IMG/VR virus record: IMGVR_UViG_3300045994_000087
Length of the DNA: 39,287 nt
Strand: one strand, 5' to 3'
DNA from: a virus
Both the position numbers and the translations under genes were made by a program. Positions 2,251 to 39,287 of this stretch are shown here, piece by piece (within the stretch, counting starts at the first letter, position 1; every line of letters begins with the position of its first letter). The notes beneath the pieces were generated by a model. The model made no database searches. It was not told the origin of the DNA and saw only the letters and a list, made by a program, of their open reading frames with translations.

Positions 2251-2913
2251 CTATTTCGCTTCATTGAGCATCTCCGTGAGTGATGGCATGACGTGTAACA
2301 AGGCCAGTTTGCACATGGTTGCTATTTCACGATGCTCCTTCTGTGTGCCGTTGCCAGTCCGCAGTTGGATGTAGTGGATCCAGCTACGAACAGAGCCGGA
2401 CATGTAGAGATGCGACGGCGTCAAACCTTCAGGCAAGACAGCACGAGCAACTTCCTTGGCGATGCCTTGGTTGAGTGCGTCCTGATAGACCTTCATGGCC
2501 TGCTCAGCGAGCCAAGCCTGTTGATCATCCCACCATGCACGCAGTGCGAAATCCTGAGACTCAGTGCTATTCTGACGGTTTGTTGTGTCTTGCAGACGGG
2601 CTTCACGCAGGACAGGTTCGGCCACGACCTCAGCGTACCGCTGGCTGAACTCTTGGAAGCTGAATGAGCGGTGCCGCAGAATCTGGCGGGCAATGTCGCG
2701 GGTCGTTTTGATCTCGATGACTGCATGAGCCATTTCGAAGGGAGACCAGTGTTGGTTGCGGACCAGATAGCTGAGCAGACGAGGAGCAGTGTCGTGGTTG
2801 GCCTGATTGGCAGGGTTCGAGACCCGTGCGCAGTAGGCCACCAACTCCTCGCCCGTCTGAACACCTTCCAGCTCAATCGGCTGGGTGAATGCGATCAGAC
2901 GGACTTGGCTCAT
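2251..2913 (-). CDS. thyX: FAD-dependent thymidylate synthase ThyX
   Basis: Track ORF of 220 aa. The ThyX signature RHRxxSxxxxSxRY is present as RHRSFSFQEFSQRY. Confidence 0.9.
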   Translation of the reverse strand: MSQVRLIAFTQPIELEGVQTGEELVAYCARVSNPANQANHDTAPRLLSYLVRNQHWSPFEMAHAVIEIKTTRDIARQILRHRSFSFQEFSQRYAEVVAEPVLREARLQDTTNRQNSTESQDFALRAWWDDQQAWLAEQAMKVYQDALNQGIAKEVARAVLPEGLTPSHLYMSGSVRSWIHYIQLRTGNGTQKEHREIATMCKLALLHVMPSLTEMLNEAK

Positions 2914-3125
2914 GACTGGTCTTCCTTCACATCGGTCTCAGCACACAGACCGTTGATGAACTCAAGCAACTCAGCCTTGGCGACTGGGATGTCGGTCTGC
3001 TCGATGGTGATGTCCTTCTTCTTGGCCCCAGTTGCCTCGACAATGTCATTGCGGGTTGCCGTTGCATCGGCATTTGTGCTGGCGTAGCGCTTGCGGCCAC
3101 CGCCTTGAACGAGATAACAACGCAT
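2910..3125 (-). CDS. Hypothetical protein (71 aa)
   Basis: Track ORF. A GGAG lies 6-9 nt upstream of ATG 3125. Its stop forms an ATGA overlap with the thyX start. Confidence 0.6.
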   Translation of the reverse strand: MRCYLVQGGGRKRYASTNADATATRNDIVEATGAKKKDITIEQTDIPVAKAELLEFINGLCAETDVKEDQS

Positions 3126-3127
3126 GA

Positions 3128-3277
3128 TCAGACTCCTTCCACTGCATCGAGCAGTTCACCGGCTTCTCCTGAAACACCAACTGCCATGTGCAGAAGGTGC
3201 GCTGTTTCTGGTGTCAGACTTGCAACAATGTCTGCACCAGGTTTGGCCAAGACTTTGACCATATGTGTGTAGTTCAT
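3128..3277 (-). CDS. 49-aa ORF resembling only the N-terminal half of MazG-like all-alpha NTP pyrophosphatases (truncated or remnant)
   Basis: My own translation is MNYTHMVKVLAKPGADIVASLTPETAHLLHMAVGVSGEAGELLDAVEGV*. A strong AAGGAG RBS lies 7 nt upstream. The EAGEL motif is present, but the second acidic helix (EExGD) is missing in all frames downstream. Confidence 0.5.
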   Translation of the reverse strand: MNYTHMVKVLAKPGADIVASLTPETAHLLHMAVGVSGEAGELLDAVEGV

Positions 3278-3303
3278 GTGAAACTCCTTACTTACATTGA
3301 GGT

Positions 3304-3329
3304 GCAAAGAAAGGAGACCTAAGTCTCCT
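3304..3329 (-). terminator. Intrinsic terminator after the 73-aa gene
   Basis: Minus strand reads AGGAGAC-TTAG-GTCTCCT (3329..3312) followed by TTCTTTG. Confidence 0.6.
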
Positions 3330-27065: not shown

Positions 27066-27539
27066 TCAAAGTTCCACAAGAAGCTGCTCCCAAGCCCTCC
27101 CGGCACCAGTCCACAAGTCTTTGGCTGCCGAGTGAGGGTATTCTTCCACATAGACGATCCGCTGGCAGCTCGTGTTCAGCAGCAGCTTGCAACAGGTCGT
27201 GCACGGGCTGGCTGTCACGTAGGCCGTGTGGATCGCGTACATGTCTCGGCACTGCATCAAAGCATTCTGCTCGGCATGGATCGCTTGGCAGGAATCGAGG
27301 TTCGTGCCGCTTGGTGCGTTCCAACCAGAGCAGGCGTGAGGATGTCCGCCACTGAGATGGTAGGCTGTATCAACATCGTTGCAGTGAGGGAGCCCAGCCG
27401 CGACGCCGTTGTACCCTGTTGAGAGCACATGGCCACGGGCACTCAGCAAGACACACCCTACGGCACGACGGCAACAGGTCGTTCTTTGAGCAGTCAACAA
27501 GGCCAGTTGGAGGGCCCATTTGTCGCGGCTGAGTCTCAT
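27066..27539 (-). CDS. dCMP deaminase (cytidine/deoxycytidylate deaminase family)
   Basis: Track ORF 27066..27584. ATG 27539 follows the upstream stop (TAAtATG). Zinc motifs HAEQNAL and PCTTCCKLL are present. Confidence 0.85.
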   Translation of the reverse strand: MRLSRDKWALQLALLTAQRTTCCRRAVGCVLLSARGHVLSTGYNGVAAGLPHCNDVDTAYHLSGGHPHACSGWNAPSGTNLDSCQAIHAEQNALMQCRDMYAIHTAYVTASPCTTCCKLLLNTSCQRIVYVEEYPHSAAKDLWTGAGRAWEQLLVEL

Positions 27540-27540
27540 A

Positions 27541-28323
27541 TTAGTGCTCCCACCAACGAAGGTCGTCACCGACCTTGCTGTCACGCAAAGCTGCCAAGAC
27601 CCTCATCAAGTGCGCCGCATCATTCCAGAGTACCGCCTCAGTCTCAGGTTGTTCAAGCACCTCACTGGCCAAGCACAACTTGGCATCCGCCCAGTTGGTC
27701 TCGTACAGATGGCTTGAAGCTGCCGTCAAGAAGAGACGCCCAGGCTTCACGGCATCATCGAACTTCCGATGCTCGTTCAGCAGACCACAGACCAGGTGGC
27801 TGAGCATGCTGAAGTTGAAGACATCATACGGAACACCAAGCCAGACATCACTTGACCGCATGAACACATGCGTATTGAGCTTGCCACTGCGGATGCTGAA
27901 GAAGATGGCCACGGTGCACGGCACATCTTTGGTCTGCGGTGGGCACTCACGCCAGATGGTCAGGCCAGCTTGACGGCTATCTTCATCGGCCATCAGCTTC
28001 TCGATGATGTAGGGCAGTTGAGTTTTGATCTTTGGACCATACGCCCCAAAGAAGCGTTCACCGTCATCGCTGAAGTCCTTGATGCGGCTGTTGTAAGGCG
28101 AGATGGTCTCGACACGGTCGTCTCCAGACAGGATCCAGAAAGCTTCAGCCGCCATGAACTTGTAGCTCAGACTGCGGTCAGGGATGCGGAGCACTGGGCG
28201 GCGCATGTCAACCACCATGGTGCGTTGTGGCATCTCACGTGTCATCTTGCCGCGTGGCGCAACTGGATCGCCGTTGGTCAGGATGTCATTGATGGTGTCG
28301 AGCCAAGTTTTTGAGAAGTCCAT
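27541..28323 (-). CDS. ThyA-family pyrimidine C5 (hydroxy)methylase, predicted dCMP-specific
   Basis: Track ORF 27541..28329. ATG 28323 has an AAGGA 7 nt upstream. AAEAFWILSG matches the ELLWFLxG block. The catalytic Cys lies in DVPCTVAIFF. FMRSSDVWLGVPYDVFNFS aligns to E. coli ThyA QRSCDVFLGLPFNIASY and places Asp where ThyA has Asn177. Confidence 0.75.
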   Translation of the reverse strand: MDFSKTWLDTINDILTNGDPVAPRGKMTREMPQRTMVVDMRRPVLRIPDRSLSYKFMAAEAFWILSGDDRVETISPYNSRIKDFSDDGERFFGAYGPKIKTQLPYIIEKLMADEDSRQAGLTIWRECPPQTKDVPCTVAIFFSIRSGKLNTHVFMRSSDVWLGVPYDVFNFSMLSHLVCGLLNEHRKFDDAVKPGRLFLTAASSHLYETNWADAKLCLASEVLEQPETEAVLWNDAAHLMRVLAALRDSKVGDDLRWWEH

Positions 28324-28325
28324 GA

Positions 28326-28697
28326 TCAATCCTTTGTGTGAGCGCCAGCAAAGAAGCCAGCATAGTTAATGATGTCCAGCGCCGTGTCACGTAGCCCTTC
28401 GAAGTTTGCGTCTTGGCCACGCATCTCTTTGAGGACCAGTGAGTTAAAGCGCTGTGACTTCGTATGGAGCATCTGAGCATAGCTCACAGCCCCAAATGGG
28501 AAGTACGACGAGCGGTCGATCTTGTGTGGGTCCATGTCCGCAGCACCTTGGTTGTAGTCCTGGCTCTTGCGAACACAGAGCAGAGCTGCTTCGGCCAGAG
28601 CGCCTGGATGGCCACCACGAGACTGGAGTTCTTCCAGCAGTTCAACGGTCGAGCATTCTGCCAACTGAGTGGCGGTCAGCAGTGATTTGGTTTTCAT
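28326..28697 (-). CDS. DUF1599-like protein (function unknown)
   Basis: Track ORF 28326..28721. ATG 28697 has an AAGGA 7 nt upstream. KSQDYNQGA...AQMLHTKSQRFNSL...NFEGLRDTALDIINYAGF fits the K-x-x-DY...K-x-x-R...E-x-x-x-D-x-x-x-D-x-x-NY pattern I associate with DUF1599. Confidence 0.5.
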   Translation of the reverse strand: MKTKSLLTATQLAECSTVELLEELQSRGGHPGALAEAALLCVRKSQDYNQGAADMDPHKIDRSSYFPFGAVSYAQMLHTKSQRFNSLVLKEMRGQDANFEGLRDTALDIINYAGFFAGAHTKD

Positions 28698-28714
28698 ATT
28701 AGTTCCTTTACGAG

Positions 28715-29107
28715 TTACCATGACAAAATTTCCTTCAGACGAGATTCAGGACCTACCCAGCCTGCCGGCTTCTTGACATCAAACGCGCTGCCGCGTTTTG
28801 AGTCTTCAGCCTTGGCCACACGTACCTTGGCCATATTAGCAGAATGAACTGCATGCATGCCGGCGTGCCACTGAGCCGGGCTAATGCCAGCAAAGAGTGC
28901 CGTACCATAGGCTACGTAAGCCAGGTCGAGCAGAGCGTCAAAGGCCCCCACCTTGTCACCAGTAGCCAAAGCCTCTTTGAGTTCATCGAGTTCTTCTTGG
29001 AGGAACTTGACGCGAAAGTCCTGCGCGGCAGGGTCTTGCATGAGCATGTCAGTCGTGCCGTTGGGCAGGCCAAACTTCTCATGGAACTTAGTGACATTTT
29101 CAATCAT
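28715..29107 (-). CDS. All-alpha NTP pyrophosphohydrolase (MazG/HisE-like)
   Basis: Track ORF of 130 aa. KFHEKFGLP...RVKFLQEELDELKEA...AFDALLDLAYVAYGTA...VHSANMAKV is typical of phage MazG-like enzymes, with EExxE and D-x-x-x-D acidic helices. The start overlaps the methyltransferase stop as TGATG. Confidence 0.7.
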   Translation of the reverse strand: MIENVTKFHEKFGLPNGTTDMLMQDPAAQDFRVKFLQEELDELKEALATGDKVGAFDALLDLAYVAYGTALFAGISPAQWHAGMHAVHSANMAKVRVAKAEDSKRGSAFDVKKPAGWVGPESRLKEILSW

Positions 29108-29940
29108 CAGAACGGCGCTCCTTTCGTGGCTTTGCGGACAACAGGCTTGGCAGGTTTGCCATCAGCTGCTTTACGGCACACCCACAGGTTGTTGCGGGCA
29201 TGGTCAGGGTAGAGACTGCCAAAGATGTTGCTGATGGCGTCACTGTCGAAGTACTGTTCAAGGCCTTGGCGCACCAACTTGATGGCGTCCAGCATCTTCT
29301 TGCCGTCCATGCCAGGGATCTGAGGCTCAACCTTGCCAATGTGCTTGATGTCCATGAAGGTACCGAAGCGACGCTCAATGATATAGCCAGCCTTCTCAAT
29401 GGATGCCTGCAGCTCAGGCACGGTGTATTCGTGGATGTGGTTCTTGGCATGACGCTTGCCGTCATAGACAGGAGTCGAGAGCAACAAAACACCACCCGGC
29501 TTGGTGGCAGCAAACATGGCTTTGAGCAGATTGGTGCCATGCTCAAACTTCATGTGTTCAATGACCTCGTAATTGACGACGACGTCGAAGCCCTCGGGAC
29601 GTGCCTTCAGAAGTTCCTTGTAGCGCTCAACAAAGTTGAACTCGCCATGAAATGTCAGGCGTTGGGAAGCGGACGGCTTCAGCTTGTTCAGATCGACACC
29701 AGTGTAGTGGTTGACGTGAGCAGCTGCGCCGCCAGTCAGGATCTTGCAGAGCGGTTTGTCTTCGCCGCAACCGACTTCAAGAACGTTGTGCTTGGCCGTG
29801 ATGAAGCGACGAGCAAAGCTCCAGCGCCAGAAGTGGGCTGAGTAGTCACGGTGAAGCGTGCGGCCATGGCCAGCCTCATGCAGTTGTGTGGTGTCGTACT
29901 CGCGGTTGTCGCGGGTAATCTCTTTAGTGGACTTGGTCAT
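29107..29940 (-). CDS. Class I SAM-dependent methyltransferase with a short Lys/Pro/Ala-rich C-terminal tail
   Basis: Track ORF 29107..30069. ATG 29940 has an AAGGAA RBS and avoids overlap with the upstream gene. Motif I is VLEVGCGEDKP, the post-I acidic residue is in YTGVDL, and there is a Methyltransf_11/23-like block DVVVNYEVIEHM...KPGGVLLLSTP. Confidence 0.7.
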   Translation of the reverse strand: MTKSTKEITRDNREYDTTQLHEAGHGRTLHRDYSAHFWRWSFARRFITAKHNVLEVGCGEDKPLCKILTGGAAAHVNHYTGVDLNKLKPSASQRLTFHGEFNFVERYKELLKARPEGFDVVVNYEVIEHMKFEHGTNLLKAMFAATKPGGVLLLSTPVYDGKRHAKNHIHEYTVPELQASIEKAGYIIERRFGTFMDIKHIGKVEPQIPGMDGKKMLDAIKLVRQGLEQYFDSDAISNIFGSLYPDHARNNLWVCRKAADGKPAKPVVRKATKGAPF

Positions 29941-38758: not shown

Positions 38759-39287
38759 TCACCGCAGGATGGCACCGCTCAGGTTGGCATCGCGCAGGAT
38801 GGTATCGTACAGGTTGGCACCGCTCAGGTTAGCACCGCTCAGGTCGGCACCGTACAGGTCGGCACCGCCCAGGTCGACACTGTGCAAGTTGGCACCGCTC
38901 AGGTTGGCATCGCGCAGGATGGTACCGCTCAGGTTGGCATCGTACAGGTTAGCACCGCTCAGGTTGGCACCGCGCAGGTCGACATAGCTCAGGTTAGCAC
39001 CGTGCAGGTCGGCAACGCTCAGGTTAGCACCGCTCAGGTTGGCATCGCGCAGGATGGTATCGTACAGGTTGGCACCGCTCAGGTTAGCACCGCTCAGGTC
39101 GGCACCGTACAGGTTAGCACCGCTCAGGTTGGCACTGTGCAAGTTGGCACCGCTCAGGTTGGCATCGCGCAGGATGGTACCGCTCAGGTTGGCATCGTAC
39201 AGGTTAGCACCGCTCAGGTTGGCACCGCGCAGGTCGACATAGCTCAGGTTAGCACCGTGCAGGTCGGCAACGCTCAGGTTAGCACCG
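38759..39287 (-). CDS. Pentapeptide-repeat protein, C-terminal part. Bases 39161-39287 duplicate 1-127, so the unique part is 38759..39160.
   Basis: Track ORF 38759..39142 ([18 protein letters not shown]... pentads). The same frame stays open up to the window end. The stop codon is at 38759-38761. Confidence 0.85.
38906..39032. repeat. Internal copy of the 127-bp terminal sequence
   Basis: Identical by eye to 1..127 and to 39161..39287. It lies exactly 255 bp upstream of 39161. Confidence 0.9.
39161..39287. repeat. Terminal overlap copy (same as 1..127)
   Basis: Exact 127-bp identity with the window start. Confidence 0.95.

Follow-up and report, generated by a model that had tools for sequence, protein, structure and literature searches.

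The ThyA-like Gene and Its Product

The DNA considered here is the virus record IMGVR_UViG_3300045994_000087, a stretch of 39,287 nucleotides (hereafter, the window), and the gene in question encodes a homolog of ThyA, the thymidylate synthase (TS) of E. coli, that is predicted to act on deoxycytidylate (dCMP) and not on deoxyuridylate (dUMP):

27541..28323, minus strand: ThyA-family enzyme, predicted dCMP 5-hydroxymethylase, 260 aa; assigned from Pfam, alignments, an AlphaFold2 model and clade conservation

As for the limits of the gene, the listing of open reading frames (ORFs) has TTG as the first codon of the minus-strand ORF, at 27541..28329; the start is placed instead at the ATG at 28323, which is where genes were called on identical and related contigs and where the 260-aa length of over 100 homologs puts it, and an AAGGA Shine-Dalgarno sequence lies ahead of this ATG. 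The ATG-started ORF has the same coordinates as in the preliminary description of the window, and its translation contains the three peptides quoted there, HVFMRSSDVWLGVPYDVFNFS, TKDVPCTVA and MAAEAFWILSG; the string compared with them as T4 gp42 is identical to the sequence of the T4 record.

Regarding its fold, the protein falls in Pfam PF00303 (E = 9e-23), and AlphaFold2, supplied with 43 sequences, modeled it with a mean pLDDT of 91.8. Foldseek returned global matches with probability 1.0 to TS and to MilA, the cytidine monophosphate (CMP) 5-hydroxymethylase of mildiomycin biosynthesis; MilA is the best structural match (TM 0.78) and also the best PDB match by sequence (E = 2e-17), in both cases above all thymidylate synthases, and a fold search in BFVD yielded just "TS/dCMP hydroxymethylase domain" names. 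The equivalents of the superfamily residues Cys146, Glu58, Tyr94, Arg166, Ser167, Asp169, His207 and Tyr209 are aligned and kept, with Cys136 corresponding to Cys146 and Glu60 to Glu58; the catalytic Cys (DVPCTV) and the AEAFWILSG block, which had been recognized beforehand, are both present. The key residues are Arg24, Glu60, Tyr95, Arg117, Asp133 (E. coli L143), Cys136 (C146), Thr137 (H147), Met155 (Q165), Arg156, Ser157, Asp159 (D169), Asp167 (N177), Ser203, His205 and Tyr207.

The Residue Predicted to Select Cytosine

The central claim of the preliminary description, an Asp at the position that discriminates uracil from cytosine, stands in the alignments: with MAFFT and several references, Asp167 lies opposite E. 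coli Asn177 and T4 gp42 Asp179, and in HMMER pairwise alignments to PDB chains its partners are the MilA Asp and the S. aureus TS Asn. The query reads R156-S-S-D159-V-W-L-G163-V-P-Y-D167 where E. coli reads R-S-C-D-V-F-L-G-L-P-F-N, with no gaps; as the spacing from R166 to N177 is identical, the alignment at Asp167 is unambiguous. This Asp is invariant in 43 close homologs, and among 150 representatives (clusters at 50% identity) it occupies position 177, in E. coli numbering, in 149, the remaining one being gapped there; such invariance across the clade makes it a clade-defining feature and not a chance substitution. That this residue determines the choice between dCMP and dUMP is backed by published mutagenesis (Hardy & Nalivaika 1992; Liu & Santi 1992; Graves et al. 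1992, as cited in PMC8670742 and PMC13326640, and also in PMC5175136).

Residue Signature of the Enzyme Class

The known activities of the superfamily are separated by six positions (143/147/165/169/177/205, E. coli numbering), and each activity was represented by a comparator:

Query: D,T,M,D,D,S
T4 gp42, dCMP hydroxymethylase: D,T,M,D,D,S
E. coli ThyA, dTMP synthase: L,H,Q,D,N,D
Xp12 QNN97214, dCMP methylase: N,P,L,D,D,H
RB69 gp48, 5-hydroxy-dCMP synthase: E,T,M,N,D,S
Ag3 gp059, ViI-type dUMP hydroxymethylase: D,N,N,D,N,N

At 6/6 positions the query agrees with T4 gp42, and it differs from ThyA and from the Xp12, RB69 and ViI-type enzymes. D143 occurs in 146/150 representatives, and the seven-residue pattern composed of the six positions and Cys146 in 127/150; the ThyA-like gene of the related locus L056 also reads D,T,M,D,D,S by alignment.

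The site of E. coli Leu143 (T4 Asp145) is hydrophobic in the methyl-forming enzymes and Asp/Glu in the hydroxymethylases (PMC13326640); in the T4 dCMP hydroxymethylase, the water used as substrate is activated by Asp145, whose change to Asn (D145N) leaves the enzyme without product (PMC6400193). The query has this Asp three residues ahead of the catalytic Cys (Asp133-Val-Pro-Cys136), which is the reason why its product is read as 5-hydroxymethyl-dCMP (5hm-dCMP) rather than 5-methyl-dCMP. Asp167 is the equivalent of T4 Asp179, and the deoxyribose discriminators of T4, Ser169 and Arg123', have their counterparts in Ser157 and Arg117, a pair of the deoxy type; the CMP preference of MilA comes from Ala176 and Lys133' (PMC5175136), and this MilA/BcmA-type pair is absent from the query. 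The features of ThyA proper are also absent, with Asp167 in place of Asn177, and Asp133, Ile and Phe in place of Leu143, Trp80 and Trp83. In ThyA, Leu143, Trp80/Trp83 and the C-terminal tail shield the methylene intermediate for hydride transfer; the C-terminus of the query, which ends ...LRWWEH, is unrelated to that tail.

On these residues, the ORF probably encodes a folate-dependent deoxycytidylate 5-hydroxymethylase of the ThyA superfamily, and not a thymidylate synthase, and there is a good likelihood that its product narrows to 5hm-dCMP.

A different modification of the same substrate is made by the flavin-dependent 5-hydroxy-dCMP synthases of the RB69 gp48/DLP3 gp80 type, and the query has Asp177, an acidic residue at 143, Thr147, Met165 and Ser205 in common with RB69 gp48, with 27% identity. 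However, Asp169 is changed to Asn in every verified 5-hydroxy-dCMP synthase (PMC13326640), whereas the query keeps Asp159 and D169 occurs in 148/150 representatives; glycosyltransferase and NDP-sugar genes were not found in the window scans either, and membership in this group is scarcely credible.

The Operon and ThyX

The ThyA-like gene is the fourth of five packed minus-strand genes, which overlap or are spaced by 1-2 nt and each have an ATG and a Shine-Dalgarno sequence; the order of transcription is S-adenosylmethionine (SAM) methyltransferase, MazG-like pyrophosphatase, 131-aa protein, ThyA-like gene and dCMP deaminase. The other members of the operon, and the flavin-dependent thymidylate synthase found elsewhere in the window, are as follows:

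29107..29940, minus strand: class I SAM-dependent methyltransferase, Hen1-like, 277 aa, first gene of the operon (Methyltransf_23, E = 9e-14)
28715..29107, minus strand: MazG-like NTP pyrophosphohydrolase, 130 aa (PF01503, E = 1.3e-11; phrog_671; N-terminal half of phrog_18404)
28326..28721, minus strand: 131-aa all-alpha protein ("MazG2") (C-terminal half of phrog_18404, E = 6.6e-18)
27066..27539, minus strand: dCMP deaminase, 157 aa, with HAEQNA and PCTTC zinc motifs (PF00383, E = 2.6e-19)
2251..2913, minus strand: ThyX, flavin-dependent thymidylate synthase, 220 aa, with the RHRSFSFQEFSQRY motif (PF02511, E = 1.5e-39)

The dCMP deaminase begins 1 nt past the stop codon of the ThyA-like gene, and its best PDB match is the T4 dCMP deaminase (1vq2, E = 7e-14). 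The MazG-like protein has weak PDB matches to DR2231 and 3nl9; by analogy with T4 gp56, it may be a dCTPase, possibly a dUTPase too, that makes dCMP and depletes dCTP. As for the 131-aa protein, phrog_18404 is a fused double-MazG PHROG, the match to PF07659 (DUF1599/Nmad1) is below threshold (E = 0.04), and no match was found in the PDB; it resembles a MazG-like or Nmad1-like domain in degenerate form. A scan of the operon for promoters and terminators gave counts no higher than in shuffled sequence.

MetaGPA found that TS, PRA-PH (MazG-like) and dCMP-deaminase domains co-occur, statistically and specifically, on cytosine-modified viral contigs (eLife 2021, PMC8670742), and the combination of MazG-like, dCMP deaminase and ThyA-like domains in the operon matches this set of markers of cytosine modification.

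ThyX scores 163 bits against NCBIfam TIGR02170, with a cut-off of 87.9, and it provides the phage with its own route to dTMP, so that the ThyA homolog is not needed for this purpose. The ThyX reaction yields no dihydrofolate (DHF), and no dihydrofolate reductase (DHFR) was found in the window scans, whereas Xp12 has one. At 3128-3307 and 2910-3125 (both minus strand), the N-terminal part of MazG-like pyrophosphatases is matched by a 59-aa ORF (phrog_229, E = 5e-8) that stops abruptly after "...EAGELLDAVEGV"; a third MazG-like gene may have been truncated here, or the ORF may reflect a frameshift or an assembly error.

The presence of ThyX bears on whether the enzyme uses dUMP, as a thymidylate synthase or a dUMP hydroxymethylase, which is what the public annotations of its relatives say, that of PW916 being "deoxyuridylate hydroxymethyltransferase". 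The TS-type fold and catalytic core agree with these names, and the neighboring dCMP deaminase makes dUMP. Nevertheless, position 177 is Asp and not Asn throughout the clade, H147, Q165, D205 and W80/W83 are all replaced, and the protein stays far below all the cut-offs of the NCBIfam ThyA equivalogs (63.4 versus 174.6 bits, and 57.4 versus 327 bits); moreover, such an enzyme would be redundant beside ThyX, and the dUMP hydroxymethylases of the ViI type and of SPO1 retain the Asn. We consider the use of dUMP highly improbable, and prefer the assignment to the dCMP hydroxymethylases.

Genome Context

The window corresponds to an entire JGI/IMG contig. Its first 127 bases (1-127) are identical to the last (39161-39287), and this 127-bp terminal direct repeat implies a circularly closed genome of ∼39.16 kb; the junction of the circle falls inside the gene of a pentapeptide-repeat protein with ANLSG repeats, which appears as the ORFs 38759-39142 and 1-540, both on the minus strand. 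The gene content looks like that of a podovirus: the structural genes comprise terminase, portal, scaffold, major capsid protein and an internal virion protein with a lysozyme domain, with no tape measure gene among the genes of the window, and the replication genes comprise a family A polymerase, an SNF2 helicase, a primase-helicase and a ligase. A megablast search of the operon against the phage collection gave the methyltransferase gene of PW916 as its sole match (73%), with no close known phage therein.

Conservation of the Operon

The ThyA-like gene served as the anchor for comparing its surroundings in 67 viral contigs, and its copies there all carry the D...D...D signature. The deaminase is found in 65/67 loci, the MazG-like gene in 63/67 and the methyltransferase upstream in 56/67; the arrangement methyltransferase, MazG-like gene, variable gene, ThyA-like gene and dCMP deaminase is conserved in ∼65 viral loci. 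Conversely, the loci anchored on the methyltransferase that are long enough to tell all have a D-type ThyA-like gene downstream.

The variable gene sits between the MazG-like and the ThyA-like genes, and this slot (loci L066-L145 and L013-L065) is filled by a kinase in 43 loci and in 21, of which this phage is one, by the 131-aa protein, by both in none and by neither in 3. The kinase-type protein has ∼300-330 aa (AXL3 gp29; it also occurs in PW916 and many relatives), and by inspection of its motifs it looks like a P-loop deoxynucleoside monophosphate (dNMP) kinase-like domain joined to a C-terminal half similar to uracil-DNA glycosylase (UDG). The exchange of the kinase with the 131-aa protein is seen even where the genes on either side are 80-93% identical from one genome to the other.

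In relatives devoid of the methyltransferase, other genes adjoin the hydroxymethylase module: two loci (L120:748-3808 and L143:6130-8994) have three-gene sets with weak matches to pyridoxal phosphate (PLP)-dependent enzymes, one (L132:6742-7491) has an HtrL_YibB-family protein, and another (L127:3553-5004) has a C5 cytosine DNA methyltransferase. Speculatively, these genes may mark a variable slot for the tailoring of 5-hydroxymethylcytosine (5hmC).

Restriction Behavior of a Related Phage DNA

The Stenotrophomonas phage AXL3 has the same operon, with a 56%-identical enzyme of the same signature, and a ThyX. Its DNA withstood 35/37 restriction enzymes and was cut by TasI (AATT) and Tru1I (TTAA) only; its authors suspected a modification of G/C, and left the matter undecided (PMC7504290). 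The 5hmC-containing DNA of T4gt is fully cut by MluCI and MseI, the isoschizomers of TasI and Tru1I (Flodman et al., PMC7653180), and it resists AccI, AciI, AhdI, AlwNI, ApaI, AvrII, BglII, BsaAI, BsaI, ClaI, HpaII, KpnI, MscI, MspI, StuI, StyI and XhoI (PMC7653180). The fully 5-methylcytosine (5mC) DNA of Xp12 is cut completely by KpnI and AhdI (PMC7653180), while KpnI and Eam1105I, the isoschizomer of AhdI, fail on AXL3 DNA (PMC7504290). Set against the T4gt and Xp12 tables, the AXL3 pattern fits 5hmC or a bulkier base, and not plain 5mC; the one mismatch with T4gt is XbaI, which cuts T4gt partially and does not cut AXL3. As regards a guanine modification behind the resistance of AXL3, genes of the queuosine/archaeosine type, or DpdA-like, were absent from the scanned ORFs of the window, a scan that did not extend to some small ORFs or to the full AXL3 genome.

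These data also bear on a route in which dCMP is hydroxymethylated and the deaminase then gives 5hm-dUMP, so that the thymine positions carry 5-hydroxymethyluracil (5hmU) or a derivative of it. The proximity of the deaminase gene and its presence in nearly every locus would suit this route, as would its resemblance to the T4 enzyme. The T4 dCMP deaminase accepts 5hm-dCMP, and the weakly PLP-enzyme-like genes of the relatives without the methyltransferase recall the clusters of thymidine hypermodification. On the other hand, AATT and TTAA are the sites where AXL3 DNA is open to cutting, and sites containing G/C are not, whereas 5hmU DNA (SP8) resists only ∼8% of the enzymes (PMC7653180); besides, ThyX would be pointless were T replaced, and the known 5hmU phages use Asn-type dUMP hydroxymethylases. 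This route appears very unlikely.

Returning to the hydroxymethylation of dCMP with retention of 5hmC or a derivative at cytosine positions, several observations weigh against it. By BLASTP, the query is closer to the Xp12 dCMP methylase (72 bits, 29%, 2e-19) than to T4 gp42 (32 bits, 5e-6), and for this overall similarity we keep a slim chance for a dCMP methyltransferase of the Xp12 type, which would perform a reductive methylation with methylenetetrahydrofolate (CH2-THF) to give 5-methyl-dCMP and DHF, and hence 5mC DNA. Asp177 fits this enzyme equally well, the motifs are alike (FLRSSDLFVGLPYDV in the query and FMRSSDVWLGVPYDV in Xp12), a ThyA-like gene followed by a dCMP deaminase also exists in Xp12, and the isolated relative PW916 belongs, like Xp12, to the Mesyanzhinovviridae. 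In addition, a Ser typical of the T4 hydroxymethylase is absent: T4 Ser94-x-Tyr96 reads Gly-Ala-Tyr in the clade (invariant F92 G93 A94 Y95), with the Tyr alone preserved; the S94A mutant of the T4 enzyme has only ∼25% activity left (PMC6400193). The methylase is made less likely by Asn143 in Xp12, where the query clade has Asp in nearly all representatives and where the D145N change in T4 kills hydroxymethylation, by the failure of KpnI and Eam1105I on AXL3 DNA, and by the Trp80, Arg127, TS-like tail (AYNPKPEVIE) and DHFR of Xp12, none of which the query has. The two sets share Asp177 and differ in the tail and at 143/147/165/205/80, but as the Xp12-type set is drawn from one sequence, this is a weak test.

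Beside the Xp12 enzyme stands the annotation of its gene: in the Xp12 locus (L146:44377-46195) it is called "thymidylate synthase", has Asp177, Asn143, Trp80 and the TS-like tail, and is followed by the dCMP deaminase and DHFR genes. It is plausible that these residues form the signature of natural dCMP methylases, in contrast to that of the hydroxymethylases.

Three further points count against the dCMP hydroxymethylase. At its C-terminus (27541-27600, minus strand) the query has a helical extension of ∼50 residues that ends in the invariant R256-W257-W258, and this RWW has a counterpart in neither ThyA, T4 gp42 nor the Xp12 enzyme; the extension might cover the folate site as a lid. Next, the support from AXL3 is indirect, as it comes from a 56%-identical enzyme and guanine may be the modified base there. 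Lastly, no dNMP kinase was found: the window ORFs of at least 45 aa lack a P-loop motif, and a tblastn search of the window with AXL3 gp29 was empty; T4 requires its gp1 kinase, and without one of its own, complete replacement of C is uncertain for this phage.

On balance, the earlier prediction that the enzyme acts on dCMP and not on dUMP, which left its product open between 5-methyl-dCMP and 5hm-dCMP, gains computational support from Asp167, the Thr, Met and Ser of the signature, the NCBIfam scores, ThyX, the operon and AXL3 DNA.

The Methyltransferase and a Possible Final Base

The methyltransferase is the best conserved protein of the module, more than the ThyA-like protein itself; in locus L037, for example, the identities are 77% and 57%, respectively. 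A profile of the family best matches, in the PDB, the domains of the Hen1 RNA 2'-O-methyltransferase (3jwg/3jwi, E = 4e-5), and its motifs EVIEH and RHA-NHIHE are invariant; the corresponding residues of Hen1 are presumably its metal ligands. The NCBIfam UbiG and Hen1 models match far below their cut-offs, Foldseek points to generic class I methyltransferases (TM ∼0.5), and phmmer found no match in the PDB. The protein may tailor 5hmC or act on RNA.

If it does tailor 5hmC, this base would not be the end product: the Hen1-like enzyme, probably a metal-dependent methyltransferase of the O-type, would methylate the 5-hydroxymethyl group, in the nucleotide or in DNA, to give an undescribed derivative such as 5-methoxymethylcytosine. 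The 131-aa Nmad1-like protein in place of the kinase would then point to a second, kinase-independent route of the modified nucleotide into DNA. We rate this outcome as unlikely. A literature search returned no methoxymethyl-cytosine in phages, and no base analysis of AXL3 or PW916 DNA.

Proposed Mechanism and Pathway

The mechanism of a dCMP hydroxymethylase is outlined here from the residues that the query has in common with T4 gp42 and MilA, and the pathway from the analogy with T4. Cys136 would attack C6 of dCMP, while Asp167 would bind and protonate N3/N4 of the cytosine, so that dCMP is chosen over dUMP; Glu60 would open CH2-THF, with transfer of the methylene to C5. Asp133 would then activate a water molecule, added to the exocyclic methylene in place of the hydride transfer, to give 5hm-dCMP and tetrahydrofolate (THF); the preference for deoxyribose would be set by Ser157 and Arg117.

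As for the supply of substrate, the MazG-like pyrophosphatase would convert dCTP into dCMP, both feeding the enzyme and depleting dCTP, and part of the dCMP would be turned by the deaminase into dUMP, as cd does in T4, for ThyX to convert into dTMP. 5hm-dCMP would be phosphorylated, in this phage by a host kinase of necessity, and the family A polymerase would incorporate the product, with C largely replaced by 5hmC or a derivative and DNA resistant to restriction.

Relatives and Relevance

At E ≤ 1e-10 the ThyA-like protein has 2,479 homologs, and at E ≤ 1e-30 there are 604 clusters of them (50% identity); among the sources are AXL3 and PW916, both isolated phages, and two pelagiphages, HTVC200P and HTVC119P. 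Thousands of relatives are labeled "thymidylate synthase" in IMG, GenBank and PHROGs, which would amount to a systematic misannotation.

The T7-like Pelagibacter phage HTVC200P provides a case of this label: its gp014 (L012:4947-5765), a "thymidylate synthase", shares ∼44-46% of its residues with the query and D,T,M,D,D,S at the signature positions, and HTVC119P gives a similar tblastn match, the signature having been read for HTVC200P. This suggests that some SAR11 podoviruses may make 5hm-dCMP too; in the literature searched, no paper was found that speaks of it.

If 5hmC does replace C, it would account for the restriction resistance of AXL3, a candidate for phage therapy, and it would be expected to skew library preparation, bisulfite or enzymatic conversion and nanopore base-calling in an abundant group of environmental phages, and to make these phages sensitive to type IV restriction systems. 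As a distant relative of T4 gp42, the clade can also reveal what residues hydroxymethylation truly requires, the Gly in place of Ser94 being an example. It should be noted that the enzyme class, the meaning of the Asp, and the existence of Asp-type ThyA homologs on modified metagenomic contigs are already published; the strategy is a known one among phages, and no new mechanism is involved.

Comparison with Known Systems

T4 gp42 (EC 2.1.2.8; PDB 1B5E, ternary complex in PMC6400193) resembles the query in the ThyA fold, the Cys, the equivalents of Glu58 and Tyr94, the cytosine-selecting Asp, the Asp three residues before the Cys, the Thr, Met and Ser at 147, 165 and 205, and the Ser and Arg that discriminate deoxyribose. 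The logic of the two genomes is similar as well, as both combine an NTP pyrophosphatase and a dCMP deaminase with a separate thymidylate synthase. However, the two proteins are only ∼21-23% identical, and the query has Gly for Ser94, Gln for Arg127, no Trp82, and the C-terminal extension with RWW that T4 gp42 does not have; unlike T4, the window phage has no gp1-type kinase or glucosyltransferases, and it uses ThyX instead of td and MazG-like proteins instead of gp56.

MilA (PDB 5JNH, 5B6D) has D-x-x-C-T, M-R-x-x-D and the Asp186 equivalent in common with the query; it differs in Ala176 and Lys133, in its place in bacterial secondary metabolism, and in its size, ∼320-340 residues as crystallized.

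The Xp12 dCMP methyltransferase (MT664984, QNN97214) is, by BLAST, the closest phage comparator with an experimental basis, and it is like the query in Asp177, the RSSD...GLPYDV motif and the adjacent dCMP deaminase; its Asn143, Pro147, Leu165, His205 and Trp80 contrast with Asp, Thr, Met, Ser and Ile of the query, which also lacks its TS-like tail and adjacent DHFR.

The Asp-type TS homologs of MetaGPA (PMC8670742) share with the query N177D, the substitutions of H147 and the co-occurrence with PRA-PH and dCMP deaminase; the neighbor there is a carbamoyltransferase that tailors 5hmC, whereas the candidate for tailoring here is the Hen1-like SAM methyltransferase.

Finally, AXL3 gp28 and ORF60 of Pseudoxanthomonas phage PW916 are isolated counterparts, with 55-57% identity, the same signature and the same operon, to which AXL3 adds ThyX; they are annotated as "thymidylate synthase" and as a dUMP hydroxymethyltransferase, respectively. 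Both phages are 47-kb siphoviruses with the kinase/UDG-like gene (AXL3 gp29), while the window looks like a 39-kb podovirus-like genome with the 131-aa protein.

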